This document shows positions 14,979-44,600 of a stretch of DNA of 64,000 nt, in pieces. Positions within the stretch are counted from its first letter, which is position 1. The number at the start of each line of letters is the position of its first letter. The notes below the pieces were generated by a model that made no database searches, was not told the origin of the DNA, and saw only the letters and a program-made list of their open reading frames with translations. Both the position numbers and the translations under genes were made by a program. Source of the DNA: an uncultured Planctomycetales bacterium (lineage in GTDB: Bacteria > Omnitrophota > Gorgyraeia > Zapsychrales > Fredricksoniimonadaceae); contig CAZNDZ010000001.1 in assembly GCA_964572155.1 (NCBI GenBank), positions 143,300 through 207,299 of the forward strand, in the 5' to 3' direction.

Positions 14979-15006
14979 TTGCCTTATTGTGATTATGTTT
15001 TATACT
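14979..15006 (+). promoter_or_regulatory. sigma70-like promoter TTGCCT-16nt-TATACT placed for a leaderless transcript
   Basis: the -10 hexamer ends 6 nt before the ATG at 15013 and no SD precedes it, consistent with leaderless initiation. Confidence 0.3.
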
Positions 15007-15012
15007 TTAACT

Positions 15013-22930: not shown

Positions 22931-23644
22931 TTAAATTTCGGCTTGCAGATAAGCTTTGCGACGCTCAGGGCTTAATCGTTCAATGCTGTAACGCAGCATC
23001 ACACGCGGCATTTTTTTATAGTTGCGGCACAGATAATCTTCCATAATATCCATCCCAACGCGCTTGCCAACCTCACGCAACATCCAGCCAGCGGCCTTAT
23101 GAATTAACTCTTGGTCGTCTTTGAGGAGCATGCTGGCAACGGTTAATGTGGGTTCTTTTTTACCTTGGCGGATGGTGTGAAAACAGGCGACGATCGCGAT
23201 GCGACGCTTCCACAGGCTCTTGGAACGCGCAAGTTTTAAAAGAACTTCGTGATTCTTATGATTCAAATAAGCGCCAACAATTTGATAGGCGCTGGCATCG
23301 ACCAAATCCCAATTGTTAATGCGTGGCGCTTTCTTTAAATAGAATTGATAAATCGCTTTACGTTGTTTTTCGGTGCCTTTATTAAACTGCGCAACTAAAA
23401 TCAAGATCGCCGTTAAGCGTTCTTCATGAATATGACTATCTAAGAGCGTGCCAATGTCTTTAAGCGACAGATGCAAATATTTTGATGCAATGGTGCGCTG
23501 TACAGGAACCGTGACCCCAATAAAAACATCGCCATGCCCATATTCCCCCTTGCCTGTCTTAAAAAATTTCTGGGAAATAATGGCCCGCGCCGGATTTGAC
23601 TTAGTCTTAAGATCTTTACGTAATTGAGCGACGTCATTTAGCAT
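22931..23644 (-). CDS. DNA alkylation repair protein (AlkD/AlkC-like HEAT-repeat glycosylase family)
   Basis: 237 aa; NNWDLVD motif and helical-repeat pattern of PF08713. Confidence 0.7.
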   Translation of the reverse strand: MLNDVAQLRKDLKTKSNPARAIISQKFFKTGKGEYGHGDVFIGVTVPVQRTIASKYLHLSLKDIGTLLDSHIHEERLTAILILVAQFNKGTEKQRKAIYQFYLKKAPRINNWDLVDASAYQIVGAYLNHKNHEVLLKLARSKSLWKRRIAIVACFHTIRQGKKEPTLTVASMLLKDDQELIHKAAGWMLREVGKRVGMDIMEDYLCRNYKKMPRVMLRYSIERLSPERRKAYLQAEI

Positions 23645-23675
23645 ATTGACATGAATTATGCCATAAGAGTTTGCG

Positions 23676-26600
23676 CTATGCTCGCGCTTTTCTCTTTTTC
23701 TTTAACTTGCTCATGCGTTGTGCCGCTCTGCCCCTTGTCACAACACCAAGCAATGGGTGGTAGGATTCTTTATAAAGCTTTATAAATACCTCTTGGACGA
23801 TTTTTGGGATCGGCAAACTGACGATAAAATCTAATCGTCGGTTAATCTTCTCTAGCCAATCTTTTGCGGAGCGATCCATACGTGGCGTTAAATTTGAGAC
23901 GGAATCTGCCACCTTAATCACACCCAATGCAGCTAATAATAATCTGAGCGTCTCTTTGTCTTGAACTTGTCGAACGCGTTTGCGCATGGCATGTATAAAA
24001 TCCGCATCGGTTTCGCCGTTGCGTTTGGTGACGACATCAATCATGAATACAATTTCTTTAGCCGATGCAGCCTCTACTTGACTTAATAATCCTTCTAGAT
24101 TTGCTTTTGATTGTTCTAAGGTTTCACCAAAAGCAACTTCTTTAATCCTTGCTTCAACCCAATCATGCAATAATGCCGTGGACAAAGCCACATCCAAACG
24201 CACATGCAAATCATTTAAATATCGAAGTAATGGTCGATTATTAAGGACGATTTCCATAACACCCAACAAATGGAAAATATAAGGATGTCCGTCAGAGCGC
24301 TTCTCATCTTTATGCTGTTCATACGCAATGTCGAAAGCTTTAAGAATTAATGGCATATTGATATCTTGATCATACGCATAAGCCCTTGCCAATAAACGAT
24401 CAAACCATTCTCTAAAATACACAGCCACATACGCATCATATTGACGTTCATACGCATAAATAGGGATGTTGCTTAATCCCATGAAAGTTAAATCCACATG
24501 ATCCGAATACCTTTGTGTGAACTCAGGAATCTCATTGAACCATTTTTGGGCGGTTGTAATCAACATGCCTTTAGGATGAATCCATTGCACCAAGCGGTTG
24601 GCCACCAGAACGGTTGCCATGGGCTTGTTGGGATCTTGTTGGGCTTCCACCTTAAATTCCACCGCTTGCATCATAATCAGATCAAACTTTGTGCCATTAA
24701 TAGGGGCGTAATCTTCAATGCGCTCTTCTTGGAATTCAAAATATGCTTTGTACTTTTCTTGCAACTCAACGTGGTTAATGTCCGCGAATGCAAAGAAATG
24801 GTCGATGATCTTCTGTGTCTCTGTTGGAATAAAACGTTTTGCCGCATTGGTCTTGAAATATTCCAAATTGTACCTGCCACGCTTTGCAATGTTTAAGTCT
24901 TCTGGATTCGGATCAAATACTGTGATCTTAAAATTTTCTGGTGTTAACAGTTGGCCGCCCCATAATTCTGGATGAGCACGATTATCTTCTATGATATAAA
25001 CCAAAGCACGTACGGCATTAACAGCAGAAGGTTGTGTTAATTGACGCAGGTAAATGTCTAAAATATCAAGCCGCCCGCGTTGATTAAATAATTGTCTTAA
25101 ATTTGGGATGGATTTCTTAATCAATGTTACAGCACCGCTGTTGGATTTAAATAACTCGATCTTGTAACGAATGACCATGTTCTTAAAATAAGAAACATGT
25201 TGGTTGGCTTGTGCGCGAATTTGTGGGTATGTTCTTCCACCTTGTTCATTGTAGTAAATGGCAAATATTTCGTAGACGAGTGTTTGCTCTAGAACCATGC
25301 GATTTTTTAACGCTGCCGGAAATAAGATAACAACATAAATATGTTTATGCTTTGCAGCAAATCTGGTGTTCATGGCATAAAGCGTATTGCCATCTCCGAC
25401 GCGACGAGTCCACTCATCTTGCATTTTCTTATCAGCTTGCACAATCACCAATTCATTGCCTTCATTCTGGCCTTCTAGCATTTGAACCAAAACTTCTGGC
25501 GCTTTCATTTCATGAAAGAATTCTTCTATTTTTCCTCGAACATCTACATAATTTCGATCTGTCTTTAACAGACGTAATTCATGTTTAACTAAATTTAAAA
25601 TCTTTCCTCTATTAAAAAAAAGAAAATCATGCGCCTCTTTTAAACCTGCTTCATCTAACGGCAACAATGTCCGTGCAGGGTCAACGGACTTATTTTTTCT
25701 AATGTCTCGGCCAAGTGATATGAAATATGCATGAATCACACCACCAATTGCAGCGAGTGCCCAGCCATTTGATTTTGTAACAACAAAGATCGTTGTGCCT
25801 GGGAACAGAAAAGAACCTGGAAAAAATATTTTGTAGATGATGGTGCTTATCGCTAAAAATCCTGCGGCAACAACGAGTCTAGCTAAAGTTACATTGTATG
25901 CCCTTGGCCCTAGTCTATTTTGAATGATGTCAAAGGCTTGCTTACGAATCCACGCAAAAACTAAATAACTTGCGACGCTGCTACCAAATAATACGATCGT
26001 GGCTCCAAAACTATAAAGCATATTGTCATAGATTGGCCCAGACCCGAGGCTCATTAAATTCGCGATGATAAACGTCCAAATAGCTGTCTCTTTAATTGAC
26101 CTAAAATCTAAAATTTCATAACGTTCACGAGCTGTTGGATTTGAATGATTCACAAATGATGTGGCAACCAAGTTGCCAATATCTTCATTAACCTGATGGG
26201 ATAAACCTAAGATCGCACCTGCTTCATGCGCAATTGAATTTAAGATGTCTTTTTTATCTTTGTTGCGTTGTGGCATGAGAACGATGACGTTATATTGAGC
26301 ATCTTTAAAGCTAACCGGCAAATGGAATGCGGATATTTTAGGAGCGGCTACGTTACGCAAACGGTTGAGCCAAACTTTAATGTCATGCTTTAATTGCGCC
26401 GGTGCATTGATAACAATGGTGTGTTTATTGCGCAATAAATCGATCATGCGACCGATATTATCATTGTAACTAGAGTAGTTCTTTTTTAATTGCTCTAGTT
26501 GAGCAATTGTCTCTAAGATTTCTTTTTCATATGTTTGCGTCCCAGGGGCATTGTTTAAAACTGCCTCTAGGGCAAGCTCGATGCTGGGTACATATTTCGC

Positions 26601-29600
26601 AATGATCTTCCTTAACGATTGACGCTGTTGCTTTGTCATTTCCCAGGAACTACGTGCAACATCCTTAGCGTTATCTTTTAGTAAGAAGACTTCTTTATCT
26701 TTAAGACCAAAGATATGACTGACAGACCCTACATATTCTTGAGGCGTATTAAACTCTTTACCGCTTAATACAACCAAAAAGAATGTGAAAAGCTGATGAT
26801 TTGTTTTGAAATTAAGTTTGGCGATCTCTGTTTCCAGGCCCGTTTTTCTATCGCTTTCACGACGTAGATATAGTAAATATGGGATCGACCTCTTTAATAC
26901 AGCCATGGCAAAAATAAATTTCGCTGAGTGGCGCAACTGAAGCCTTGGGGCAAGTTGAAAATATTCTGCGTAAAGCGTCACCATTAAGAATAACAAGTCA
27001 TCATTCTTATAACCTTCAAAATCGATGCGATATCCAACCGCTTCATAGACAATCCCGCCGATATCATTGCCAACAGGAATTCTAATTGGAACACCTTCTG
27101 GCCAAGCAATTTTAAAAACCTTTAAATACTGCGCCTTAATCCATTGTTGTTTTGCTGCAACTTTTTCTCTTAAAGTAGGCTCTGGTGAATATACAATCGG
27201 CTGCGTCTTGATTGGAACAAAAATGCTTTTTGATGACTTGATTGGATCAATGATCACAGGGTCTTGCATATAATGTAACCATGCATGCGCTATAAACACA
27301 ACCAACGCTTCAATCCCAAACACATACAATGGTATTTTTTGTTGAAAGATAATACCTAAAACAATAAAGAGCCAAACAACCACATTCACCATATTTTTCC
27401 ATGTTGCTTTTGAAATGACTTCCGATGAACCTTCGATGCCAATCACTCGATCTAAATTGGAAAGCTTCATTAAACGTCGCTGGGCTTTAATCGCTGCCTT
27501 TTCTGTTGGTTGCTGTTCATGAGCGATAACATGGGCAATGAAACGCAAGGCTTGAGCTTGTGTTAAACCAAGCCTGTTGGTTAAAATATAATAGATAACG
27601 TCTTGAGGCTCTTCGTTATTTCTAACCGTGATCATCCATTTCCACGTCGTAACATATTGACCGTTAATCTTAACTGTTTTGCTTTGGGCAATCACACCTT
27701 GGGGCAGCATCGCATGTTCTTCTAAAAACTCTTTTAATGCTCTTGTCCATTTCGCTAAATCTCTAAATTGTTTAGCGCGCAGAACATCACGCTCTTGTGA
27801 AGCCGCTTTATCTTGTTCAAGGTCTGACCAATTGTGATGACTATCTTGAGATGTATTGTCGTTATATAACCATGGGAACATGTAACGGCTAAATCTTTCC
27901 CATGAACCTAATGACTGCAAATACTTCTCTCTTGCAATCTGGTTGATATCTTGAATGCTGGAACGGATCAACATAGCCACTTCATCATCAAAATACCGAC
28001 CCAAAATCAATCTGCGATACGGCGTCATCCATATCTCATTTAATTTAAATTTAATGTCTTCCCTATATTCAAAAGCCCATACAATACCCGCAACATAAGA
28101 TTCACCTGTTCTTGTATTCACAACTTGAGCAATGAGATTCTTTTGCAAATCACTGTTAATCATATCCCACGCTTCAGTGGCATTTAATTCTTGTGAGCTT
28201 GCTCGTAACCATATGTCTGGATAAAGTGTTGGTATGGTAAACGCGTCAGCGAGCGTCATGCTGCGGACAACCAAAACCGAATCATTCTCAGAGATAAAAT
28301 TATGCACCCGAATATGGGGCGTATTCATGATGTAATGGCTGCCAGTCTGATCATCTCTTAGGTTAAAAATATCTTTAAGCGTGACATCGATGCTCACCAT
28401 TTTTTTCTTGTCTAACGCTAATTCATGAAACCATGCGACTTGTGCGGCCAAGGCTAAGGATTCTGTTGGCTGTGCTTCGTGGCGTTTGATGTTTTCTAGA
28501 ATTTCGTATGCTCTTTGTTGTGGGAATTGCTCTAACAATAAGGCTCTGACGGTTGCTTCACCGTTTTCAAAAACAGCATTCCATTGAATCTTACCCGCTT
28601 CATGTTTCGCAAAATCAAAATGACGTAATTCACTGGCTGTTCCACGAACTCGTCCTAGACGGAGCAATTGGATGATGAAATCTTTCAAATCTTTTTCAAG
28701 CGTTGAAAAGCCTTCATAAGCAACTGTATCATTGCGGTACTTCATCTTTGCTTCGGCCATCCCTGCAATCGAAATCGCGTGACCTGCTTTCTTGGGTAAA
28801 CGAACAATGATTTGATAATAATCATCTTTTTTATTTCTGTAATCATCGACCCTAACCATAAAGCGTGGTGATTGTGTGATTAAGACAATGCGCTGCAATT
28901 TTCCTAATTCAAATGTGCGGGACAACCATCGCCCAAGCCAATATAAACGCCCATTGATGAGTTGCAATTTTCTGACCGTCAATAATGCATCCAAACGTTG
29001 CTCTCGGGTTTGAAAGTCTAATATATAAACTCGTTTTGTGTTAGGTAATGGATAAATCATCGACACGCCGCGACGTTCATCACCCCGTGAACTAAAGAAA
29101 TATCCATCATTAAACTTAGCCGCACCAAAAACTTCATGAAAACCAATTGCGGATTCAGGGCTATGGGTCATTAAAAATTCCACATTAGAATCTTGCATGG
29201 CCAACGCTTTGATATTGGTGATCAACAGCTTAGATAGATCTTTAGGGAAGTGGCTTCCATAATATGCCTTGCGATCTTTTGACACGCCTTTTAGATATGG
29301 GATACCGGTGCTGTGTGGGACAATGGCATTGCCATTAGGATCAAAGTTGTTTCGTACTTTCTGAATCGATTCCCAAATGGTTCCCTTCACATCACTTGAT
29401 TCAATTTTTGCTAACAGCAAATCATCCAACATAACTTTTGTCGTCCAGATAACAGAGCCCAAATAAGCACCTGAACCATTTTGTGCAACTTCAGCAACTA
29501 ACTGACCTTCAGGGTTCTTTAAAATCATGCCCCAAGCTTGATGGGCATCAAAGATATCTGACGGTGTTGTCATCCAAATGTCCTGTTGTAATGCAGCAAC

Positions 29601-32600
29601 AGGCAATGCGTCACTTAATGTCATGTGACGGATGATAACAACTTCGAAAACACCATCTTTGGTGCGATTGTAAATGCGCACATAAGGCTTATCGCTTTCA
29701 TATGCCTTGGGATCATCACCTTCTTGCAATTCATAAATGGAACGTTGAACGACTTCAATCGTTGCTTGACGACGACGATCTTGAGCTAATCGCTTAACTA
29801 GCAACTTTTGCGCTAAAATAGCGCGTTCTTCCGTCGACTCTGCTTCATGCACCCTAATGTGTTCTAAGATCTCGAATGCTCGATTGGCTGGGAAAACTTC
29901 GAGGAGCAACTTTAAAACCGTAGCTTCACCATTTTCAAATGCCGGATTCCAAACAATATTACCAAAATCATGGCGGGCAATTTCAAAAACACGTAATTCT
30001 TGCGGTGATCCTCGAATACGGCCGGTATCTTGGAGATATTGCAAGAACACCGTCAAATCCTTTACAAGATCAACAAATCCTGCCTTTTGCATGCCTTCAA
30101 TGGTCATGGGATGATCTTGATGTCGTTTGATGTATTTGATACCATCCGCGTCGACATTTTTAGCCGATATGAATTCAAAGATGGCTGCAAGCCCATGTAA
30201 ACCTGCCATTGCAAAAAGCGTATACTTTACAAAAACGGATATCACCCCAGCGGCTAGCAGCGATAGAATCGGCGCCGCACTTAATATAGAGTCAACCATG
30301 ATATACGGCGTGATCAAGGCTGCGACTGTAACAGGTTCAACATATAACCCTGCCGCAGCCAATAATAAGGCCGCAACAGCACTGGCAAAAAATCCAAACA
30401 AGAACGTTACGCCACTCACACCGTCGATACGACCTTCGTGAAAATTTACTCTGACTTTCTGTCCAAACATCAATGCCCCAAGCAAATGCCCAAACTCATG
30501 CCATGCGATGACGCCGGTATATTTCAATAAGTTTCTGACGCTCGACGATAAACCAAATGGCAATTGGTCGGTCCAAAGCAAAAGACCAAGATAGGCAGTT
30601 CCTGCAAAAACCTTGGTTCTTATAAAACCATTTAGATCCAACTGTTCGAGCCCATTGCCTTCGAATACTTTTGGATGCAAATATATTTGATGTGCTTGAG
30701 TTTTTCCAATCACGCTGCTGGCCGTAACCCATGTGATCAGAAATTTATTACTGGGATTGATCCAAGCAATTTTGAGGGGATCGATGGCTTTATTTGTTAA
30801 GAACTTTAATGTTTCTGGACTTAAAGCCTTCATGAAACGTTGACGTTCGACGTCATTTAATTCTCTTGGTAAATCGGTGCCAAAGTATTGCTCAACTTGA
30901 ACACCTAAGTTTTTTCCGTTCTCTAGAAGTGAGCGAATGAAATCAACTTGGCGTTTGATGTGTTTCACTGGATCAACCTGATAAAACTCTCCCACCACAG
31001 TGACTAAGCGTTGGGCAATTTGAATAGCATTCAAGTAACCTAAATCATCAAGTTGTTGATTCACAAAGATGAAGATAAATTCATCACCGCGATCCTTAAC
31101 ACCCTGCCATTGCGCCTTCATCGCTAAACCAACAGACTTAAATTCACCGTCCATTTTTCCGGCACTGGCCAACACATTTTTTAAACGCGCTGCCACATCA
31201 GGACGGCCTTGCGTTAAGCGATCTATCGATGCTTTAGATAGCGCCGTTAAATCAATTAATATGACACGATTATTGCGCAGCATGTCGGCCAACAAGTTCC
31301 CCATGGATAAACGTGGTTCTTTCGCTTCTCTAATATTAATGGTTTGATCCGGATGAGTTTGTAAGAAGTCGACCGCGAGTGTCGCAGCAAAATGATTCGG
31401 CTTTAATGTATGGTCTACATGGTTAGAAAACACAACACTATAGAGTTGCTTGAAGATATTGCGATAAACACCACTGTAACCATAACGCATTTGTGCTTGA
31501 TCGCTATCATATTGCAAGCCAACGTATGTATCGACAGATCTGTTTTGTTGATCTTTTTCAAAATCTCTAAACACAGCATCTAACTCATACTCAGCTTGCC
31601 TTTGTTCTTCTTCTAGCATCAAGGTTAAAATGGTGTTGCGGGCATATTCATCATCGGAAACAGCGCCTAAAATATCTAAGCCATCATATAAATGTTGTAA
31701 TTCAACAAAGTTTTCTGGTTTGCCTGTGAAATGATTTAAGGTAACATCAATGGCTTGTTGCTCATTTTCTCCTAACGCTTCATGTCCTAATATTTCATGT
31801 CGCAAAACATCTTTAAGCACCGCCAAAAATTTCGTGCTGCTGCGTTCATTCGTATTAAACGGCGGCAACATGGACATGGGGATCACATTAAGCAAAACGC
31901 GTCGGGTTTTAAAATCATACTGAGCTAAAATTTCTTTTGGAACAGCATTGGTAATTACAATGTTGTTCATGCGGCTAACAGGTAATGACAACCCTTCAAG
32001 TGCGGCTCGCACATAGGCTTGCTGACGGGCCAATAATTCATCGCCAGATGTAAATTTATCGGTGTCCAAACGGTGATGCCAAAAATCAAAACGTGATGGG
32101 TAATCAGATTTAATTTCAACAGGTGGCGTTCCAATGACGTCGACGATTTGGCCAGATGAAACTGGTTTTGGTGAACGGGTTGTATAGACTTTGGTCTGAC
32201 TGGTTGAATTCCAAGGATTGTAACGCCAGAAGGTGATCAAACGATCCAAGCCCTCTGGTTCAACCAAGGCCACTTCACTAAATGTTAAGACAAACATCTT
32301 TTGCACGGCCACCATATTGATTAACCCGTCATACATGATGCCGTATAATTTACGCACGTCACTAGATGCATCTCTAAAATCAACATCGCCTAAATGAATG
32401 TGATGATCCGTGACGTTGGAATTCTTACTATGGTCCGTCGCTTCTTCATTCGCTACTCTTAAGCCAGTGGTAAATACTTCAGCGCCGCCAGTAAATAAAT
32501 CACGGTAGCTCCACCCTGTTAATATCCCTTTGGTTTGCTTGGCAGTGGTTGCCACGTTGGCGGCGCGTTGAGGATCAATGGGTAAGAAGAAAAATGCCTT

Positions 32601-35600
32601 TGTACCACGTCTGACGCCACTTAAGAATCTAGCACCAAAATGGTCTTCGGCATTACCACCATGTTCAGCCACTTCTTGGGATGCGTGTGCAGTAGCATGC
32701 AATTTGCGTACTAAGATTTCTAAGAGTTGATGATAGGCTGATTCAGCACCGATCGCAAAGGTTGGCATTCCCAAACGATCCCACAGTGGATGATTCTTAA
32801 AGTAACGCATGACAATCGTAAAGCCATATAAGTTAAACAAGAACAACAATGTTTCAATGGTAACCGCAACAATGTTTAAATTCATGCCAAAAATAACGCC
32901 CGTGATAAACAGTTTGTTCCAAATCAACGCAGGGATAGAGAAGTTTAAAATTAAATATGAAACATTAAAAACCTTCCCCCACATAACTTCTTTAATACGC
33001 CACGCTAAATAATGTGCTTTCTCATTTATTGTTGCACTAACTGTTGATTCAATCGTTAATCCTTTATGATCAACTCCTAGAACTTGTTCGATTTTTTTGA
33101 GCGCATCATTGCGCAGGCGCATCAAATGTCTAAAGCCTTCTTTATTGATTTCCATCATGAAGCGGTACTGACGGCTATATTTTTGACGCATGCCGCGATG
33201 CAAGAACACGGCTAATTCGTTAACCAACCAAATCAATGCTGTTGTATCGACCGTTGATGCTTCAGAAATGCGGATATTCGCATCGGTGATAAACAAACGG
33301 CGACTAAATGGGGCCCCATCGCTAAAGCGTTGACCAATGCCCTTGGCCATGATGGTGTCAGGGCGATTATTTAAAACAAAAACACGCCCTGGAAACATGC
33401 TTTGCAACTTACCAACACCCGCTAAGGTTGGGAATGTTTGCCCTGAATCACTGATCGCAAAAAATATCGTTCTACGGGTCGCACCGTATTCGCGAGGATC
33501 ATCAACGAGCTTGTTCGACGAAATCGCTGAGATATTTAAATATGGGAAAATGACCTCTAATATTTCCTTAAGTTTTTCGCCCACCCATTGTGATTTTTCA
33601 AAACCTGTGATGATCAAATGTCGTTTCTCAAAATCAGCGATCTTATTCTTATGTATCTTTTCATGGAAATGACCATTGATCGCATCAACAAAGGCATTCA
33701 TGGCATTTTTGCTATCGTGTTCCCAATCCCAATCATTACGTACTTTGTTAAATGAGCTATTTAAGTAAGCTAAAATATTACGGCTAAGCACAAGCACCCA
33801 TGCGCTCAACTCTTTATCAAATTCTTTGGAAAGAGCATTTAAATCGATTGCTTGATCTAATTGTCCTGTTTGTGATAACTCATCGATTTTGTCCGAAACA
33901 AACTTTTCAGCCATCCCATAGAAGTAATCCTCTAATAAGGATTTTCCTTCAACAGCGTCCATCATGTCGGTGACAAACTTTTCGCGTGCTGACTCATCAA
34001 CCAACCCTACCTGATTACGCGCGAAGCGTTCGATCAACGTTAAAAATTTAGGTCTAAGTGTTGAAAAGCCCGTTGTGCGGCTTTTGATTTCATTTTCAAT
34101 AAATAGCGCTTCTAACATGGCCAACAGGTCTTGGGCGCTTTGATGGTTTAATGATGCTGGATTACTGAAACTATTGGTGATGCCAAGCAAAACACGGGCT
34201 GTATCTTCCATGTCAAACTTCACATAATTCTTAACACCAGCATAATCAACGAGCGGACGGTAGAACTGATTGTTTTCATTGAGCGACATCAAATTGTTAA
34301 AGAATTCATTCCCTGAAATCTCACGGCCTATATTCATGTTATAAACACTGACTTGGAAACGTCCATCCGCATACATGTTAAGATCTGCCACTTCACCTTT
34401 TCCGGTAATGTCCATGTCATAACGCTTGGTCAAATATCCTTTAGAACCATATTTGACTTGTAAGACCAATGATTCAGAAGCAAAACCGAAGAACTTTTCT
34501 TTCGTGTTAAAACCAAATGAGATGGCTTGATCGCGTGTAAAGAATGAAAGGCCATTGTTGAGTGAAGTGCGCACCACAACACCGAAGCTGCCTTCAGCGC
34601 GTTGTGCAAAGGCACGTGTGGCACGGTAACGATCATTGATAAAGAATGCGCGCAACACCCCTTCGACAAACACATCTAATTGTTGTGCATCTAAATGCCA
34701 ATTTCTAACGATTGCCGCTGCATTTTGATCCGCCAATAAAGCCTTAGTGATATCTTGGCGTAATTGATTTAAGCGCTCGCGTTGCTTTAACTTGACTGCA
34801 TCATCCGTCTGGTCAACTTCAACCCAAAGATCAGACAATGTTCTTCGTGGCTTATTAGCATTGAATTTAGAAATAGCTGCGGCATGTTGTTTAAAGATGT
34901 TGTCAATAACGCCAGCGATCGTGTTGCGGTCTTTGATGGATAAAGCCGTATTATCTTTAGCGACGGCTTCCAATGGCTTTTTGCCATTAAAAATATCTTG
35001 AGGTGTTTTAATAACATTTAAAATCCATGAGTTAATGACCGCAGATGTAAACATGCCTTGATTAAAGAATAATCGCACTGCACCGGAGGCTGGTGGAGAA
35101 TCGCCTGGGGTTTCGTCGGCAAACGGATAATCAAAAGGCTTCTTTACTTGTTCAACATGAAAGACATTCTTTAATAATTGGCGCAATTCATCATTATCGA
35201 TCTTACGCCCTAAAATATCAAAATAATCAAAATCCCCGTTATGAGTGATGGCCACAATCACCGTCTCAGTAGTCTTAACCAAGGCGCCTTGCGCATCAAA
35301 CGACCATACTTCAACATTTAATTCAACAAAGTCAACGTGAGGATGCGAAGCATTTGGCTTTGCTTTACCCGCCGTTGCAAAACGCACGTGACCAGATAAC
35401 AAATTGACGCCCAAGACTCCCTTTGCACCTTGCTTAATCATATGAATTACTTTTTTGGCCCAAGCACGTTCCATGACATCAGCAAGCAGAGGTCGTTTGC
35501 CTTTCATGGCTTTTAACATCAACATGCCATACCCACCTGTCGCATCACGGAAAGATTGGATCATACCTGCTGTTTGACCACCGCGGATGGTGATCATGGT

Positions 35601-38600
35601 CAATTGATTGCGTCTTGCTTCAACCGCCCAATCAGGATTGATTTCTGGTTCGAGTGAATTATCAATCCAACCAAAACCAAAGTTACCGCACTTAACCTCC
35701 TCATCGTAAACGTTATTTAAAACGTCTGTGATAAATGACAAAATAGTCGTAACCAAAAATCCAAAAACCATTGGAAAACTTACAAACGATACCCAAGAAA
35801 TAAAACCAAGATATCCCATCAATGAAACCATCAACAGTGTCAGATTTGATACAAACCCTGCCAATCGAACGCTCCAAGTCGCTGGTACGCGCGCATGAGG
35901 TTGAGCTTTGAAATATCCAACTACTGGTATTGCAGCAAATAATATTTGAGCTGGTGTTAGATTTCCTAGTAGATTGCTTTTATTTAGAAACTTACGGTCT
36001 TCGGTCACACCAGCTGCGAATGTATGCGCGGCTTCATTAACCACAAATCCTAAGACCAAGCTCACTCGAAAAACAATTATCCCAAGTAATGCCTGTATCC
36101 AACCACCACTCATGCCAATGCTTAGAATATTCAATAAATCTAATACCTTTAAATACCGATTAGGATTTAAAACTCCTGCTCCTCTATCATTATCCATCCC
36201 CAACCGCATGCCGCCTTGTGGCACGCCGGTTGAGCGGTCAATGATTTGAGCTGCTTCTCCCTCGCTGCTTAGAATTGCTTGCTCTGAAACTAACAATGTT
36301 GATCTTTCTTCATCATGAGTCAAGCGATGGGCGCGTAATTGCGCTAAATATGGGTCATTGTCATAAACAAATTTTTCGACGAATTGAATATGCTGATCAA
36401 ATGCATTTAAGTATTGAATGTAGGGAATGGTTCTAAAGCGGAAAACTTGGTCATTGCTTAATTGTGGTTCTTTGATGCTAGCGACTTCGTCAAACAAGAT
36501 AATTTTCAAATCTTGCGGTGGCGCACGTAATAACGCATTCATGTTTAAGTGAATCTCATTTAAACGCACCGTCGCAAAATATTTCAGACCATTGTTCACG
36601 CGAATACGAGGAGCAAAACCATTTAATTGTTCTCTGATAAAAGGCAGGACATGCTGATCAATAAATCGCAGTTCCACTGCTGTCGGCGCTCGCGGCTTGG
36701 CGTTGTGGTCAACTAATTCATCTTTTAAACGCAAAGGATAATTCTTTGCTTGATTCTTCTGAAATACTGATTCAAATCCATATGCAATGGAAATATGGAT
36801 GGGTTGGGAATTTTCCTTTGAAAATACACGACCAATGCCTTCTTGGAGACCTTCAAAATAGCTATTGATAGGGCTTGGTAAATCAGAGATTCCTCGAGAT
36901 GATAACAAGCTCTTTAATGTTCTGCCTGTCCTTAACATGACCAATGGAATGATAAAGTCACCTACAATATGTAAACTTCTAATCGGCATAACTTCTAGAA
37001 AACGATCATGCAGTTCATTTGAGTTTGGATCTTTAAAAAATAACGCTTGTTGTGCATCGATCCAATCCCGTGCATCTTTTATGCTGTACCCTAAAACATT
37101 TGTTAATACGCTAACTAACTTGTGAACCTGAGATTCAACACTAAACCATGCGCCTGACCGAATATACGCTTTTAATAAAATGTCGTAATCGCTCTCTCTT
37201 ACCCACTCAAATATTTTCTGAACATTGGATATGAATCTAACTTCTCGCTCTGTTGTATTAAAAGCAATGCGCATGAAACCTGTAAATGCTGGAAATTGTT
37301 CTAAGCCTAAATTGGCATAATCATATCGATTGAAGATATTATTACCCGCTAAAACTTTCTCAATCCTCTTGGCAAATACCAAATGATCATCAACAAACGG
37401 CTCAACCACCGCAACAGCCTCAAGTGTTCTTAAATCTTGAACAAGTACTCCCATTTTTTGGTTATTGGTGTCTTCTAAAGACATTTTCTGTGACGATAAA
37501 ACAATCTCACCTTCACGGCGTAATGGTCCTGTTAAAAATTGATCTCCAAAGGCCATATACAAAGCAGGTCTATCTGCATCATACATATCCAACAATGCTT
37601 CTTTAAGCGCATATAAGAACATGTCATCTCTGGCTGTAAAAACACCCTCCGAACCTTCTAACAATGACTTCGATAATAATGGCAATGTGAAATTTTCTTT
37701 TCTTAAACTTTCATTGATTGCTTCAAACATTTCCTTATCTTGAGCATCACCTGCTAATAATACAAGTCTACGTGTTTGGGTAATTGGCAAATCGAAGCGC
37801 GCCGCATCAATGAAATCTTCCCCATAAACTCTAAAACCTTCAGAAGGATTGTTTTTCGCGTATTTCCATAACTCGCTCAGCGTGGTTGATCTTCCTAAAT
37901 AATCTAAGGACATGAGAAACGGCCATAAACTGCCTCGTCCTACTTCCGTTGGCATAAAAATAATTGGGGTTTTATACAAGCTGGTTGATCGCATCATCAA
38001 ATATTCTTTTGAAGCACGAACAACATCCTGATCGTTTTCAACTGAGAAGATAATCATGTCGAGTGGGCTTGAATTGCTTTGTATATATCTTAAAGCATCC
38101 ATTTTCTTGCCCCACTGCAGCTGTTTAAAATAATCCCTTGTAAAAATGTGCTTCGCTCTTCCGATAAATATATTATTTAATTCCTCTTCAATGAACCTAA
38201 AACGACGTTCTACTAAATCAATGTCAGCTAATAACCCGGATTTGTTCTTCAATATGAATGGCAAATAATTAACTAAAACACCTGCACTGATCACCAATAA
38301 ACTTAATGTGGTCATTAATGTGAATCCTGTAAAAAATGCAAGATTTGTAAACATGATCGCTATGCCTAGGGGCACAAGAATTCTTCGACCAATCTGACTA
38401 TGACGCCAATAACGTTCAATAGAGAAATCTGTATCTTTCTCTTCTCCGCCTTCTAGCTTCTTCCCATCCTTGATAGAAATAAGTAATGCAGACCACTGTA
38501 TCAAAAATTCACTTGTTGATTCTTTATAAAGCCCAGGAATAAAACCATTGCTCTGATCATGAATCTTCTTAATTTGTTCTAGCGCTGACTGAATATACTT

Positions 38601-41600
38601 GTTTCCATTATAATCCAACCCCGTATGCCATGATCTTGCAAACTTCGTCCCATAACGCTGATAAAGATCTGCCAAATATTGACCTCTCGCAGATTTCCCA
38701 AAAAACTTAGGTATTGCATAATTAAACACACGGCGTGCAGAATAAATAGCCTCTAGCCCACCTAAGATATTATTGATCAATTGCCTTGTTTCTTGAATAA
38801 TCAGCAAAGCAAATGCTAAAACTTCTTTAAGCTCATCTGAGTCATCAGTTTTTGCTTGTTGATAAATGAAGTCCGTTATGATCTTATTTATCGATTTCTG
38901 TAGTTGGCTGTATGTACTCTTATATCTGACGACATTATCAGCAACCTTAATGGGGGAAGAAAAATTCTCTAGACGAATGATAAAAATAATCGTATTGAGA
39001 ACATTAGAGATTTCATCTGTCGTAAAGTATCTATCTTTTACATCTGTTTTCTTTTCTTTGATTTCAATAATCTGACTTAAATAATCCAACGCTTCTTGAA
39101 TCAACGTATCTTTATCTTTAGGTGTTTCAGAACGACCATTAGTCGTTGTACTCTGATTGACATTATTCTGACGATTATTTTCAATGTTTTTAATGGTGCG
39201 CACAAATGAGGATTTTGTTTCAACGGCTTGTGCCTGGTCAATTGATGCTTTAGGCTCATCATGCATCACAACAGAAATACTAGCCAATTCATTATTTGGA
39301 TCAAACGCAAATTCTTCCACAGGTGCTTGAGGTGCGGGTTTTGGTCCGTTAGATTTACGCTTGCCACCTCGAGGACCACGGCCATTGTTGCCCGTAATTT
39401 TGCGAATTAATCTTCTTAATAAGAAGTAAATGATCGCAACAACGGCTCCTGCGCCTGCAAAGCCAGCGGCAATTTCAGCAGCGCGTTGTGGCCATGTTAA
39501 GGTGTTTGATACATCATAAATGGTTTTCCAGTTAGCAACTTTGAAATCAAAGGTCTTATAAAACGTCTCCATCTCCAAAACGCGGTCGTTATAAAATTTC
39601 TTGTCGCCGTGTTCCAAAATTGGCAGCCATTTCCAAATCACATCATCAATTTTATCTTTATCATTTGCTCTTTGAATGGCCTGTTTGATTTCTTCTTCGA
39701 CAGCTGTATTCTTAAGCGGTGTATTGGTGTCTCTTACATTAAGTAGTTCTTTTAATTCTTGCTCGGCCAAACGTGCTGGTAAGGCATATTTATAATAGCT
39801 GTCGACCTTAGCCCAGTTTTCATTGAGTACCGCTGATTTCTCAACAACAGCCACAAGTTTTTGAACTAAAGGTTTATCTTGAACTGTAGGGCCAAAGTTT
39901 TCAAAGAGAGGTCGGACATGTAATATTTCCGCTGCGAGCAAAGCATTATTAAGATTTGAATTTTCTGTGACATTGATGCGGCGTTGCATTTCATCCGCCA
40001 AGATGCGCAAGGCATCACCATCTTTAGACGTTGCTAGAATTCGTAATGCTAAAAGCACTTCATCATTATTTGCTTTTGGATCCGCCAAAACTTCTTTTGC
40101 GATCTTTAAACGAATATCCACGGCATTATTTTGTGCATTGGCGCGCGTATTTTCAAACTGTGCCAAAGCCCATAAGACCTTGTCTCTTAAGACAGGATCT
40201 TTGAACTTTTCAGCTATCATATAAACCGCCAATGGATTACTCTTCCCCTTAAATTTAACTGGGTCGCGTTGTTCATCATAGTGATCAGACACGAGCGTCA
40301 TGATGGCATATTCACTATTTAAAACATCCGCCCCAAACAACCATTGATTAATCAAAGCCGTACGTGATCCTGTTGATTGAGCATACGTTAACGCGCTGCT
40401 GCAAACTGCTAAAGCAGAATCCATACGTTTATGGAAATCATGGATGTTAATCGTCATCTGGCTAAAGAACCGACGGGTTGCATCCTCATAATTAACTCTT
40501 GGTATCGGCCGACTTAAATTGATCAATGTTCTGGCGCGTAAAGGCTTGTCTTCAACAAGATTACTAAAGGTGCTTTGTTTGTACCCATAAGGCACAATAG
40601 CCCTAACCTTATCATGAAGGGTTGCATCAATTTCGGACATCAAGTTGATGGTCAACCATTCTTTGCCAATGCTTAATGGATCATTTTTGATTTTGTTTAA
40701 TTTATTCTGTGCCAAGAAATCTGGTTCAAGACCAGCAGCCATTTGCTTATATGCTTTAACAGCTGCAACAGCTAACTCTTGATAAAATTTCTGAGCAATA
40801 ACATCGCGGGTATCAATTGGATATTGTTCATTAAGATTCTCAATGACCGCGCGCAATGCACCCGCAGCTTGTGTGTTGTTTTGTAATTTACCTAAAGCAT
40901 CGATTGCGGCTTTGCGTGCAGGAACAAATTCATTTTTATCGTTAGCACGTTCGCCTAAGAATGTCACAATCGCATCATCCAAAGGCAATGTCTTCCATAA
41001 GCCTGCTTCTAATACAGACCCTAATGCCCCAATCATCGCCGTCTTATCATTATTTTCCGTTGTCTTCTTGGCCACATCAAAGACATTGATCACATCAACT
41101 GTCTTTGGATCAATGTTAACGATCAACCCTGTGCTTAACGTAACTTTTGATGCCGCGGGAACATTAGTAGAATCACGTAAGTTGCGCATGGCGCTCATTT
41201 GTGTTTGTAATAATAATTCTTTGCTTTGGCCTTGTGCCACGGTTGGTCGTTGTGGCAAGGCACGCAATTGACGATCAATCTGATCACGGACGACATTTTG
41301 ATCGAGTATTCTAAAGATAGATTTAACCTTGGTGATATGTGCTGACAATGATCCGGAATTAAACAAGGTCACATTAACCGCATCTTCTAAGATAAACTCG
41401 ATTAATGGTCTTACAAAAACTGGACTTTGCACATTTGCAGGGTTTAATTTTTCAAAGGTCATTAAAGCAATCGTGAATTTCTTGTGCGTTAATGCATCGG
41501 TTAAAATTTGTTGGGCATATTCATTATTGGTTTGAAGCAAGAAATCTACAATGGCTGCGGCTAACGCTGGATCAACGTTCTCTTCCTTTAATACAGCTGC

Positions 41601-44600
41601 TTGCTTGATCAATGAATTGTTATCGGCGGTATAAATGGAACCTACAACAACTGGGTCGATGTTAAGTGCGGCCTTAAACAAATTCATCTTGATCGTTGGG
41701 TTTGGATTTTCCATGGCCTTAGCTAATAAATTCAACATGCTTGGGGCAATGCGTTCTTGTGCCAATGTTTCTGAGGCGGCTAATCTAGCATTCATGGATT
41801 TGGAGCCATCTAATAAGATCTCAAAGGCATTGATGACATCTTCGGAGGCTGGATTACGTATATCTTGCAAAGCTAAGGCAATATCTTTTTCACCCTTCGC
41901 CCATGCTGCACGGATGGCTGCATCTAATTGCGCGTTAACAAAAGCGGTCTTGGGTAAAATATTGCGCAACGTCTTAATGCGTCCCATGACTTCGCGATAT
42001 GTCGATACGTCGGTGATGCTCCCTAAATGTAAGTCTCTGGCATTATTCACAAGCGTAGGGATTGCTGATGAGATCATACCTGATCCAGCAGCGGCATTGG
42101 CTATGGCTTCTTCTGCAGCCCGGCGGATGATGACATTGGCATCACCGGCATATTTGCCAATCACGGCTTGTGCATTGGTGTCTAACATAGAATTTAGCAA
42201 ATCAATGAGCACAACCATCGTCTCAGGATTATCTTTGAAGCGATCCATGGCCCCTTGCACTGCAGGTAATAACTTATCGTTGATCCCTTGGTATAAACGT
42301 GGCTTTAAATTAATTTGTTTAGCGGCGATCGCATAGGTCTTGATGCTCTCTGGATCCATTTCATTCTTGAAGCGTTCAACCAAGACTTCAACAGGGATGA
42401 TCACATTATTTTTTGTTGCGAGCAACAAGGCGCCAAATTCGCGTTCATGATTTTGGTTGGTGCTTAAATTGATCAAACGTTGCAATTGATCGCCAGATGC
42501 TGCGGCATTGTCCTTGGCAAATTGTGCATACCCTGTTTCTAATGCTTTTAAACGTGCTTCTAAAATTGGAGCGGCTGCTTGTAACGTTACATCTTTGCCT
42601 GCAGGGATGATGTTGAGCTTCTTTTTGATCTCAGCGATCAATCGTTCCACGTTCTTTGGATCTTTGCTCATGACCTTCTCTAATAACAGTAAATATTGGC
42701 GTGCCAATTGATCTGGGCCCTTAGCCACAATAGCTTTTTCAACTTCATTTTCAATCCTGCTTAAAGAATAATTGGAGCGATTGATTAAATAGGCTAAGGC
42801 GTCGATGATATGTTCTCTATAACCATCCCATATGCCTTGTTGAATGCTATTTTCTGAAGACTTGATTGAAAGCATCAGATCAAATAATGGGTCGATGGCG
42901 GTTTCATTTTCTAAAGCCTTCGCGGCTGTTGCTGCTGTTAAATATAATAACCATTCATCGTCTTTAACATTGCCACGATTAGCCTGTAAAACCTTGGTGA
43001 TGAAATCATGCAAACGCTTATCGCTGCTTAAACCCGCACCAGCAATGGCTGCTAAACGCACGCGGTTATTTGGACTATTTAACCCAAGCTGCTCAACCAT
43101 ATCAAAACCACGGAAATTATTCTTAATACCATCTTGTGATTGAACCAACCGGGCCCAGGTTTCAATGCCTAAGATCTGATTGTGTTCTACTTCTCGCGGT
43201 AAATTCTCAGCGATGCGGTTGATAATGTCAGCAATGGTTGGATTCCCAAAGGCATTGCCATTTAAGAAATAACTTAAAACTTGATTACCCTTGTTCGATT
43301 TATCCGCGACTAAAACCTTGGATGCCAAAATCAAATGTTGATATGCACGTGCACGTAAAACTGCTGGGTCATCACGCAAACGCCAGAATTCATCATAACC
43401 ACGTTCTAGAACACCAAATATTGTTTCTGTAGACAAAACTTCGAATGACTTCGCCTTCGAAACCAAATCAACAATCCCAGACCCTGTTCCATACGAAACT
43501 GGCTTAGTTGCAACGGGGCCTACAAAATAGGTACTTTGATAAGCCACTTTAATGGTCTCTGGTGTTACAACGCCTCTATCATTAAGGCGTTTTAACGCAT
43601 CCGCTTTTTGTGTATTTGTGCTGTTAGTATTTATGAGCACTTGAACGTCACTATCTAGATTTTGCTTTGTTGCTTGGCGCGTTTGTTGTGTTACAAAAGA
43701 TGCGCCGCCGCGTTGTGCATACGTGTTGGTTGATACTAACGCTGTCATTGCTCCAACTAAGATGGCTGCAGCAATAAATGATGTGAAGTTACCTGCCCCG
43801 TCAGTAAAGTCTTTCACGATATCATGGGCTTGATCGTCACCAACAATGCTTCTTAATTCAACAAGTAAGTCGCGCTTGATTTGTTCGATGGCGTCATTGG
43901 CTTTATTAAAATCTACCTGTGCGCCTTGGACGGGTTGTTTGCTTACGTCTGACAAGATCAAATAGGCTTGGGCAATGATTAATGCACGTAATTGAACTGC
44001 ATACGGTGCATCAAACTGGGTTGGTGCAAAATATTGCCCTTCGAGGATGGTTGCTTTCAAGCCACGGCTTAAAACGAATAGGTCTTCAAAGGTAACATCT
44101 TGATTATTTAAAAAGTCATTGATCAGTTTTTCTGGTGAGCCAATGTGTTCTAAAATAAACGCATTTATTTCATCTCCACCTTGCAAGCCATTGACACTTG
44201 CAATCTCTTGTCCAAGCTTTTTAAGCAAAACTTCAAACGCAGCGGCATTAAATGACACATAATTTGGTAAAAGCGTTTTCTTGGCAACATCAATAAAACC
44301 GTCGGACAAGGCATTAACACGCGCAACCAAGGTGTTTGGCTTGCGACCAAAGTAAAAAGCACGAATGGCATCATAAATTTCTTGGAAGCGCAACGGTTCA
44401 ACAACTGGCTCATCAAATGCTTGATCGAACAGAGATTCAAAAGTCTCGACGACTGGTTCTGGCGCAACCGTTGGTTCGTCCATCAACTTACGAACATCTA
44501 ACAATTGTTCTAACGTTTCTAGCCATTCTGCTTCAACAGTAAATCCAAGCGTATTGTTTGAAATAAACTCAAGGTAGCCTTCCAAGACAGCCGTTGGTTC

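Follow-up and report, generated by a model that had tools for sequence, protein, structure and literature searches.

The last part of a giant open reading frame (ORF) in an uncultured Omnitrophota bacterium, encoding a membrane protein of more than 13,400 aa, raises the question as to whether such a protein can end in a genuine Rel/SpoT-type (RSH) HD domain and whether this domain is likely to turn over alarmones such as (p)ppGpp.

A giant membrane protein with a probably cytoplasmic C-terminus

Within the window, the 64-kb stretch of DNA that was analysed, the giant ORF lies on the minus strand at 23676..63926 and encodes 13,416 aa counted from the first GTG, with roughly 20 hydrophobic segments and only 2 Cys. 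With 13,440 codons the frame runs uninterrupted to base 64000, where the window stops, and the protein probably extends further, its true N-terminus lying outside the window. The neighbouring GlmS has named best relatives that are all Ca. Omnitrophota (64-70% identity) and there are no che genes among the neighbours of the giant ORF. Searches of the whole protein against Pfam, NCBIfam and PDB sequences recognised only LysM and the RSH HD domain and returned no sensing domain in the rest of the protein, while blastp of the protein against itself revealed no internal repeats at E<=1e-3. An internal GlmS-like Cys and HExxH-like motifs could bear on possible cleavage of this polyprotein. The last cluster of transmembrane helices was placed at 25713..26084 on the minus strand (aa 12615-12738) using hydropathy and sequence. 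As the final helix is followed directly by RDIRKNK, the positive-inside rule, which is the one basis for this placement, suggests that the C-terminal ~680 aa are probably cytoplasmic, in line with the cytoplasmic tail proposed in an initial annotation of this DNA.

With more than 10,000 aa, numerous transmembrane helices and an Omnitrophota host, the protein resembles the 'Archaeovorin-type' Omnitrophota giants, which in the accessible portions of the two papers that describe them (10.1101/2023.11.21.568195; 10.64898/2026.06.07.730766) exceed 10,000 aa and carry many transmembrane helices and divergent embedded enzyme domains. Methyltransferase, LOG and HD-type content is reported for Omnitrophota giants in these same portions (10.1101/2023.11.21.568195; 10.64898/2026.06.07.730766), and the available text of the 2026 preprint (10.64898/2026.06.07.730766) refers generically to 'HD-domain regulators' in giant proteins. 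RSH/HD_4, RelA_SpoT and CheR-like domains go unmentioned in the searchable text of both papers (10.1101/2023.11.21.568195; 10.64898/2026.06.07.730766), and their searchable supplementary tables hold no HD_4, RelA_SpoT or CheR entries. SecA-DEAD, glycosyltransferase, NUDIX and peptidase domains, which reportedly require structure prediction to be recognised, gave no Pfam match at E up to 0.01 in the part of our protein that lies in the window, its N-terminus being outside.

Homology to the Rel/SpoT hydrolase domain

The RSH-type HD domain occupies 23754..24425 on the minus strand (aa ~13168-13391). The motif blocks that the initial annotation had reported at 23757-24344 are all present, four in number and all within the last 230 aa of the giant ORF, with the correction that the feature lies on the minus strand, the plus-strand translation being ridden with stops. 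As a single sequence the domain gives borderline matches that remain below threshold, both to Pfam HD_4 (E 8.4e-4, 19.5 bits against a cut-off of 27.2) and to NCBIfam spoT_relA (E 5e-4, 18.4 bits against a cut-off of 499), and it is below the gathering threshold for Pfam HD as well. The weak PDB matches of the single sequence are nonetheless all (8/8) to Rel, RelA or MESH1 hydrolase domains, and a long-RSH HMM run on the giant matched solely at aa 13174-13259 (HMM positions 24-98). No other RSH match is present within the 64-kb window.

In order to find relatives we used the last 1200 aa of the giant as a query in an exhaustive search of a library of 1.84e9 proteins, which gave 25 hits and yielded 24 relatives, with E-values from the giant to the family of 1e-47 to 1e-10. 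Matches other than to strain variants were confined to query residues ~712-1186, the exceptions being a handful of small HD/Rel-like proteins of ordinary type, in which the match covers the first HD motif only. A profile of this conserved module matched Rel/RelA/SpoT hydrolase domains of known structure at E 8e-17 to 1e-12, SAH/MESH1 at E 1e-11 to 1e-10 and CheR at E 2.8e-7, and when compared with 5.8e9 proteins it recovered canonical long RSH proteins at E 7e-13, the matches there being to ordinary long RSH proteins with no additional members of the module family. When the last 354 aa were used in a word-indexed homology search, no match was obtained at E<=1e-3, the protein itself included, so that the giant is apparently absent from that index. 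A scan of genome contigs with the last 574 aa returned no relative, and a scan of metagenome contigs recovered a single short locus, which suggests that the family is rare or poorly assembled.

The AlphaFold2 (AF2) model of the module has a pLDDT of 82.5 and a pTM of 0.79, with most 10-residue blocks of the HD region at a pLDDT of about 85-97, and in this predicted model the domain adopts an all-alpha RSH-type HD fold, nearer to the RSH hydrolases than to other HD phosphohydrolases. The sub-threshold scores of the single sequence against HD_4 and HD are the one observation that would favour a chance resemblance of motifs, or a generic HD-superfamily phosphohydrolase unrelated to Rel/SpoT; we consider this extremely improbable and effectively refuted by the family profile matches to Rel/SpoT. 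The link is firm because significance is reached through the profile of the relatives and not through the single sequence. Judged from these profiles and the predicted model, the giant protein ends in a genuine but divergent homologue of the Rel/SpoT hydrolase domain, as had been proposed, the structure prediction and the placement of the metal ligands (see below) both agreeing with that proposal.

Neither of the familiar forms of RSH protein accommodates this domain. A stand-alone small alarmone hydrolase (SAH) was rejected, the domain being the C-terminus of a 13,416-aa ORF and fused to a CheR-like domain, as was a long RSH protein, since RelA_SpoT synthetase, TGS and ACT domains gave no match either in the giant protein or in a six-frame translation of the 64-kb window.

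A two-domain module shared with other giant proteins

The initial annotation had pictured a lone SAH-like appendage. What we find instead is that the HD domain forms the second half of a larger unit, the first half of which is a CheR-like class I methyltransferase fold at 24444..25088 on the minus strand (aa ~12947-13161). Based on alignments and the predicted structure, the conserved unit is ~450 aa long and consists of the CheR-like methyltransferase fold followed by the RSH HD domain. The CheR-like half retains the motifs FDLIMMQAVEF and GMLITTAQKWF and the class I fold. The Gly-containing S-x-G loop for SAM binding is deleted in the giant by 4 residues (LDILDIY----LRQ, as against ILSFGG/ILSFGA in relatives), and this region has a pLDDT of 48 in the AF2 model. 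With the loop deleted, binding of SAM is doubtful. Compared with the CheR glutamate O-methyltransferases (PF01739; 5y4r, 5ftw, 1af7) this half has about 17% identity in addition to the loop deletion, and neither the CheR N-terminal helical domain nor the receptor-binding beta-subdomain was identified in the giant. Pfam CheR gave no match to the giant at E up to 10, and the relatives score 18-22 bits, below the cut-off of 27.

The module also occurs internally in open frames of 6464, 5785 and 6929 aa from Omnitrophota/'Planctomycetia' MAGs, three loci that were located by a contig scan with patterns drawn from a 5-sequence alignment, the full alignment of 16 sequences being too divergent to yield such patterns. 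Among the protein relatives it is found with further nucleotide-related domains: P0014 combines the CheR-like fold with HD_4 (44 bits) and a RelA_SpoT synthetase (38 bits), P0005/L004 joins LOG to the module and P0027 joins a PRPP synthetase to it. The module of JAKQAH010000046 (L004 aa 3352-3776) is one of those with ED/EE. The synthetase that follows the module in some relatives indicates that the module derives from the catalytic N-terminal half of a long RSH protein. Usually the module is internal in relatives, in which it keeps the full catalytic signature HDxxE[D/E], K.xD[R/K]..N, and it is terminal in the present giant. On this comparative evidence the module is an evolutionary building block common to giant proteins of Omnitrophota/PVC bacteria. 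We found no description of a CheR-like/RSH-HD architecture in the searchable literature, so the earlier statement that nothing like it was known holds for that literature, although the architecture is not unique, the same module being present in other Omnitrophota/PVC giant ORFs.

P0004 had been considered as an 81%-identical orthologue, which would have pointed to conservation of EA. Full alignment rejected this: P0004 is a strain variant that shares 94.6% identity with the giant overall and about 100% in the module. Between the two strains the module is 99-100% identical and the adjacent segment has diverged to 35-78%.

Metal site and loss of the ED aspartate

The first motif of the HD domain, EKRSDGHPYIFHLL, lies at 24264..24305 on the minus strand (aa 13208-13221), includes GHPYIFHLL and carries Arg13210, Tyr13216 and the first metal ligand His13219; it aligns with GEPFFYHP/GDPYITHP of solved Rel proteins and its R, G, P and H columns are invariant in the family alignment (A1). 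The second, ALLHDWVEA at 24150..24176 on the minus strand (aa 13251-13259), keeps the metal ligands His13254 and Asp13255 as well as Glu13258. The third, IKVADSVSNL at 23889..23918 on the minus strand (aa 13337-13346), keeps Lys13338, the fourth metal ligand Asp13341 and Asn13345, and aligns with liKfcDRLHNMRT of Rel, with K392, D395 and N399 invariant in A1. The fourth, KDWLEKINRRLDFIV, is found at 23820..23864 on the minus strand (aa 13355-13369). The protein then ends in a polybasic tail, RGRAAQRMSKLKKKRKARA (23679..23735, minus strand), which is disordered in the model (pLDDT <50, residues 447-470) and which the relatives lack.

RSH hydrolases are characterised by an invariant 2H2D motif and an invariant ED diad (PMC11554896). 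All four ligands of the 2H2D motif (His13219, His13254, Asp13255 and Asp13341) are kept in the giant, in columns that do not vary across A1 and that line up with the motifs of Rel. More broadly, 14 columns invariant in the family, all metal ligands among them, are kept in the giant; in A1 numbering, the invariant R264, G267, P269, H273, H308, D309, E312, K392, D395 and N399 are all retained. Arg13210, Tyr13216 and Asn13345 align with conserved RSH positions, and Tyr13216 and Asn13345 correspond to Y32 and N126 of MESH1, which contact the substrate phosphate. That the 2H2D site and most of the substrate-contacting residues are intact argues for retained chemistry and against a dead domain.

The ED diad (HDxxED) is incomplete. 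The Glu is kept and the Asp is replaced by Ala13259 (24150-24152), giving HDWVEA, which bears out the earlier reading of an EA in place of ED and of uncertain activity. We compared this position across the module relatives, the small HD proteins P0023 and P0026, long RSH proteins and the three MAG loci, and Ala was present only in the giant and its strain variant P0004, with D or E in every other motif-bearing sequence examined. A second departure is Ser13342, where nearly all relatives, again with the three MAG loci in the comparison, have Arg or Lys (K.xD[RK]..N). On account of the incomplete diad we class the domain as a divergent homologue and not as a bona fide (p)ppGpp hydrolase, and with one catalytic residue lost this copy may be weak or inactive. 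The agreement of P0004, as a strain variant, confirms the sequence and says nothing as to long-term selection on EA.

In SpoT(Ab) E82Q is dead, whereas D83N works poorly with Mg2+ and recovers in part with mM Mn2+ (PMC11554896), and human MESH1 is severely impaired by E65A as well as by D66K (bioRxiv 10.1101/325266). The D83N substitution in SpoT differs from the D-to-A change in the giant. The only second sequence with EA is the strain variant P0004.

The initial annotation had suggested that turnover of alarmones is coupled to whatever the giant senses. A fully competent, membrane-tethered (p)ppGpp/(p)ppApp pyrophosphohydrolase of this kind would agree with the RSH fold and profile matches, with a site in which none of the four Mn ligands is missing and in which Arg, Tyr, Asn and the ED Glu are also retained, and with relatives in which a complete ED/EE and an adjacent synthetase tie the module family to alarmone chemistry. 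We regard it as unlikely, however, as the invariant Asp is Ala and SpoT D83N is poor with Mg2+ (PMC11554896), Ser stands in place of the conserved Arg/Lys that follows the last Asp, and neither a synthetase (in the protein or the window) nor a sensing domain (in the rest of the protein) was identified. The proposed coupling is weakened by the missing Asp, the poor activity of SpoT D83N in Mg2+ (PMC11554896) and the lack of a synthetase in the protein.

Alternatively D to A and R to S could both be marks of a changed substrate, the domain being an active phosphohydrolase of the RSH fold that acts, for example, on a 3'- or 2'-monophosphate ester, pyrophosphorylated tRNA 3' ends or a nucleotide from neighbouring enzyme modules. 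Diversification of this type has precedents in MESH1, an NADPH phosphatase (bioRxiv 10.1101/325266), and in the toxSAS SAH antitoxins that act on tRNA 3' ends; the specificity of RSH hydrolases is set by the supplier of the second-metal ligand (PMC11554896); and some relatives have LOG or PRPP synthetase, both domains of nucleotide metabolism, joined to the module. The ED diad is nevertheless kept in MESH1 and in every variant characterised (PMC11554896), and no sequence feature of the giant points to another substrate, so this explanation seems to us quite improbable.

The simultaneous defects in the two halves, namely the Gly-loop deletion in the methyltransferase together with ED to EA and R to S in the HD domain, and the terminal position of a module that is internal in relatives, might also mean that what closes the polyprotein is a decaying relic, without a function of its own and under relaxed selection in both halves. 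Against this the ORF is intact, every metal ligand is among the 14 family-invariant columns that the giant retains, the predicted structure carries high confidence (pLDDT mostly about 85-97 across the HD region) and the module is 99-100% identical in two strains next to a segment at 35-78%, making a relic very unlikely in our judgement.

A probably attenuated or nucleotide-binding domain

The explanation we favour, and consider somewhat probable from the sequence and the predicted structure, is that the giant ends in a cytoplasmic module of a CheR-like fold packed against a divergent RSH HD domain, and that the latter is attenuated or nucleotide-binding and is not the main alarmone hydrolase of the cell. 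The HD domain would still bind metal and, on the cytoplasmic side of the membrane, a 3'-(pyro)phosphorylated nucleotide, e.g. (p)ppGpp or (p)ppApp. With its second-metal site crippled it would at best be a slow, Mn-dependent hydrolase, and more probably a nucleotide-binding or regulatory remnant by analogy with the pseudo-hydrolase domain of RelA. It counts against attenuation that a neighbouring residue or the substrate phosphate could replace the lost Asp as second-metal ligand.

Comparison with known systems illustrates how far the domain departs from them. Identity to the HD domains of long RSH Rel/SpoT proteins (HD_4, PF13328; PDB 9s6k, 8acu, 6s2t, 7qpr, 1vj7) is only about 17-24%, and in contrast to these proteins the giant is without synthetase, TGS and ACT domains, has Ala for the ED Asp and Ser for the Arg of ADR, and presents its HD domain behind a CheR-like domain, as the last part of a polytopic membrane protein that exceeds 13,400 aa. 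The known SAH/MESH1 comparators (P. aeruginosa SAH 6z3n, human MESH1 5vxa/3nr1 and the (p)ppApp hydrolase 7smg) belong to a class of soluble proteins that stand alone, measure about 180-200 aa and have the complete ED, whereas the HD domain of the giant is fused, membrane-tethered and has EA. RelA offers a parallel, in that its inactive pseudo-hydrolase domain has been retained in a regulatory role (PMC8012599), and the giant likewise retains an RSH HD domain with loss of a catalytic residue. RelA has, however, lost the whole HDxxED and regulates an adjacent synthetase, whereas the giant has an intact metal site and lacks a synthetase that could be regulated.

A wider reading, which we put forward tentatively as a possibility on the less likely side, is that CheR-like plus Rel/SpoT HD modules in Omnitrophota giants, with or without a RelA_SpoT synthetase, are an unrecognised class of membrane-tethered alarmone enzymes or sensors, in which the ED-defective copy of the present giant would be a (p)ppNpp receptor gating the activity or processing of the megaprotein.

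Implications

The fusion of a CheR-like fold to an RSH hydrolase domain, and sometimes to a synthetase, inside polytopic megaproteins is new to the searchable RSH literature, and the natural ED-to-EA variant bears on the recently proposed two-metal mechanism. The giant proteins of Omnitrophota are almost wholly uncharacterised, and as sequence searches recognise only LysM and the RSH HD domain in the 13,416 aa of the present one, the RSH-type module is among the very few functional handles on it, with ~450 aa being small enough for expression and assay. If the organism is without a canonical synthetase, it becomes directly testable whether the alarmone that reaches the domain comes from the cell itself or from a prey or host. 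Were the receptor reading true, alarmone signalling would be wired into the giant proteins that are thought to underlie a predatory or epibiotic lifestyle.

The RSH hydrolase domain at the C-terminus of the giant protein

The interval 23757-24344, initially annotated as a Rel/SpoT-type HD domain, holds no open frame on the plus strand upon translation and corresponds to the end of the giant ORF on the minus strand (23676..63926, 13,416 codons counted from the first GTG). A 40-kb ORF at 41.7% G+C is not possible by chance and is therefore coding sequence. No stop interrupts the frame from the first GTG (63926) through 63927-64000 on the minus strand, and it remains open at the window edge (base 64000; 13,440 codons in total), so the protein probably exceeds 13,416 aa, with its N-terminus beyond the window. 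The annotated peptide blocks were all found exactly in the minus-strand translation, namely GHPYIFHLL (within aa 13208-13221), ALLHDWVEA (aa 13251-13259), IKVADSVSNL (aa 13337-13346) and KDWLEKINRRLDFIV (aa 13355-13369). The stop lies 47 residues past the last of these, following a polybasic tail (...KLKKKRKARA; RGRAAQRMSKLKKKRKARA, 23679-23735, minus strand) which is disordered in the AF2 model of the C-terminal module, is missing in all relatives and might serve to bind anionic lipids or nucleic acids.

Taken alone the HD sequence is a borderline RSH (RelA/SpoT homologue) match, with E-values of 8.4e-4 for Pfam HD_4 (19.5 bits; cut-off 27.2), 0.036 for generic Pfam HD and about 5e-4 for NCBIfam spoT_relA and SpoT; the eight weak matches given by phmmer against the PDB (E 1e-3 to 0.07) were without exception hydrolase domains of Rel, RelA or MESH1. 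No match to the giant C-terminus came from a word-indexed search of 5.8e9 proteins. The decisive evidence was an exhaustive HMMER search with the last 1200 aa against 1.84e9 cluster representatives, which returned 25 matches including a strain variant, P0004. Six (P0022-P0026 and P0028) are ordinary small HD/Rel-like proteins matching the first motif only, and the remainder (E 1e-47 to about 1e-3) all fall inside query residues ~712-1186 and mark out a unit of ~450 aa. Aligned, 16 of these units share invariant columns at T179 and W183, at R264, G267, P269 and H273, at L307, H308, D309 and E312 and at K392, D395, N399 and P402. The profile of this alignment matched solved Rel/RelA/SpoT hydrolase domains (E 8e-17 to 1e-12), small alarmone hydrolases together with MESH1 (E 1e-11 to 1e-10) and a (p)ppApp hydrolase (E 5e-7), with GePYliHp, LLHDivEd and liKiaDrldN aligning on GEPFFYHP, LLHDVIED and liKfcDRLHN of Rel; among 5.8e9 proteins it reached E 7e-13 against long RSH proteins of the canonical type. 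The giant's own domain stays below the HD_4 cut-off, but because the module family's profile matches RSH hydrolases, and solved Rel/SpoT domains at E 8e-17, the initial assignment is correct and the domain is, by homology and fold, a member of the RSH hydrolase-domain lineage. That the low individual scores reflect chance resemblance or a non-RSH HD domain is extremely improbable beside these profile matches.

A composite module recurrent in giant proteins

The conserved unit is not the lone HD domain first described, as its N-terminal half, previously unnoticed, has the fold of a CheR-like class I methyltransferase (aa ~12947-13161, window 24444-25088, minus strand). The profile matched B. 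subtilis CheR (5ftw) at E 2.8e-7, the best ten Foldseek matches were all CheR (E about 2e-6) and several relatives gave Pfam CheR matches below threshold. The high pTM of the model suggests that the two domains are packed in a defined arrangement, and model confidence in the methyltransferase half is lowest where the giant has lost an S-F-G-G loop (LDILDIY----LRQ) that in relatives takes the place of the CheR SAM-binding loop.

Scanning one genome per species in GTDB with a 5-sequence alignment of the module identified three loci, in the Candidatus Omnitrophota MAG JAKQAH010000046 and in two MAGs labelled Planctomycetia/Planctomycetales. In all three the module lies mid-frame, within open frames of 6464, 5785 and 6929 aa (the last running past both ends of its locus), and is followed by between 2000 and 3300 residues. 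Since the other HMMER matches are likewise parts of proteins 2689 to 7967 aa long, the module is a building block that recurs among giant proteins. P0014 combines the CheR-like fold with HD_4 (44 bits) and a RelA_SpoT synthetase (38 bits), both above threshold, while upstream of the module are a LOG/Lysine_decarbox domain (P0005/L004, directly adjacent), a PRPP-synthetase pair (P0027) or a GNAT domain (P0007); these neighbours point to nucleotide chemistry. A local long-RSH HMM placed a second RSH HD near the N-terminus, followed by synthetase sequence, in P0016 (7967 aa) and P0018 and close to the C-terminus in P0015; this lineage may often embed alarmone-type enzymes in its megaproteins. The window's giant has one RSH HD, and the long-RSH HMM found no synthetase, TGS or ACT anywhere in it in the window, which rules out a long RSH; it is also not a small alarmone hydrolase, as the domain is not free-standing.

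Active-site residues

What defines an RSH hydrolase is a set of four invariant metal ligands (2H2D) together with an invariant Glu-Asp diad, on which a second metal is proposed to sit; SpoT(Ab) E82Q is inactive, and D83N is poor in Mg2+ with only partial rescue by millimolar Mn2+ (PMC11554896). Human MESH1 is severely impaired by E65A and by D66K (bioRxiv 10.1101/325266). In the giant all four Mn-binding ligands are in place (H13219, H13254, D13255, D13341), so that the first metal site is intact, and the diad Glu (E13258), first-motif Arg and Tyr (R13210, Y13216) and last-motif Asn (N13345) are kept. The diad Asp is lost to Ala13259 (HDWVEA), as the initial annotation had noted, at a position that is Asp or Glu in every other motif-bearing sequence examined except P0004. 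The presence of EA in P0004, a strain variant only (94.6% identity overall, 99-100% in the module), shows that it is not a sequencing error. Ser13342 follows the last Asp, where all relatives but one have R or K. Unlike bona fide (p)ppGpp hydrolases the domain lacks the defining ED diad, and it is not classed as one for that reason.

Catalytic competence of the giant's copy is suspect, and our reading of the module is made at the level of domains. The HD domain would bind Mn2+ and a 3'-(pyro)phosphorylated purine nucleotide at the cytoplasmic face; with a weakened second-metal site it would be at best a slow, Mn-dependent hydrolase and would more probably act within the megaprotein as a nucleotide-binding or regulatory part, comparable to the regulatory pseudo-hydrolase domain that RelA keeps (PMC8012599). 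We lean modestly towards this reading. A fully active alarmone hydrolase, with which the complete 2H2D set is compatible and the missing Asp is not easily squared, seems unlikely, and a hydrolase with a shifted substrate slightly more so. A functionless relic could have lost the Asp, yet the retained metal ligands and motif residues make it the least probable of these.

Membrane location and other features

The hydrophobic cluster nearest the C-terminus (aa 12615-12738) terminates in the basic ...ISLG-RDIRKNK and the loop before it is strongly basic as well, so under the positive-inside rule the final ~680 residues would be cytoplasmic, as first proposed, which fits a nucleotide-handling module. 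Besides the HD domain, sequence searches of the whole giant recognised solely a LysM peptidoglycan-binding motif (45477-45605, minus strand, aa 6108-6150; a partial Pfam match at 24 bits, above threshold; PDB SafA E 0.007), which lies between two hydrophobic segments and implies a loop in the periplasm that contacts the wall. A very divergent GlmS-like module (~33177-35690, minus strand, aa ~9413-10250) has three co-linear signatures and weak matches (NCBIfam GlmS E 0.008; local GlmS HMM E 0.004): Cys9413, one of only two Cys in 13,416 aa, lies in KCGNFGFGW, GHVRFATAGKAKPNASHPH matches the class-II amidotransferase motif and FFAISDSGQTFPTLAG the SIS motif. As an internal residue Cys9413 would require polyprotein cleavage to become an N-terminal nucleophile.

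P0004 is 94-100% identical to the giant in nearly all 200-aa windows. Identity falls to 71%, 35% and 78% in a segment adjoining the module upstream (~25284-27083, minus strand, aa 12282-12881) that holds the last TM cluster and HEAGAILGLSH, pointing to a hotspot of recombination or diversification. Short HExxH-like or HE.GA..GL.H motifs (HELTHVFGG, HEILGHEALG, WHEFGHLLGA, HEAGAILGLSH), each preceded by a hydrophobic strand, occur at aa ~6440s, ~10,700s, ~11,150 and 12567 with a degenerate copy at ~12880, and also beside the module in P0017 and P0020. Pfam recognises none of them; they may be minimal metallopeptidase-like "punctuation" units.

Genomic and taxonomic context

Around the giant gene lie ordinary housekeeping genes of bacteria, including a pyrR/pyrB/pyrC/pyrK/pyrD/pyrF-like set (assigned from Pfam domains), fpg, glmS, dacA, dsbA, a BamE-like gene and tRNAs, and the named best relatives of the neighbouring GlmS are all Candidatus Omnitrophota/Omnitrophica MAGs (64-70% identity). 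The next gene encodes a DNA_alkylation repair protein (22931-23644, minus strand); the 31-base gap to the giant stop (23645-23675) contains no terminator-like site, and the 40-kb gene may share a transcript with the housekeeping genes downstream of it. Two genes on the strand opposite to the giant separate the pyr genes from glmS: a Peptidase_S74 intramolecular-chaperone gene (14989-16254, plus strand), a domain typical of phage tail fibres, and an IS200-type Y1 transposase gene (16399-17058, plus strand), an arrangement repeated on an independent Logan contig (L001).

Giant, TM-rich and highly divergent multi-enzyme proteins are described as a hallmark of Omnitrophota in the available text of two studies (bioRxiv 10.1101/2023.11.21.568195; 10.64898/2026.06.07.730766), which does not mention RSH, HD_4, RelA_SpoT, CheR or alarmones, the latter naming "HD-domain regulators" among signal-transduction content. 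Literature searches found no paper on Omnitrophota together with ppGpp and, among papers that mention both CheR and an alarmone hydrolase, none that seemed by title or abstract to deal with such a fusion. In the searchable literature no description was found of a CheR-like and HD module within giant proteins of Omnitrophota, and this new RSH architecture provides a real, assayable handle on an otherwise dark megaprotein.
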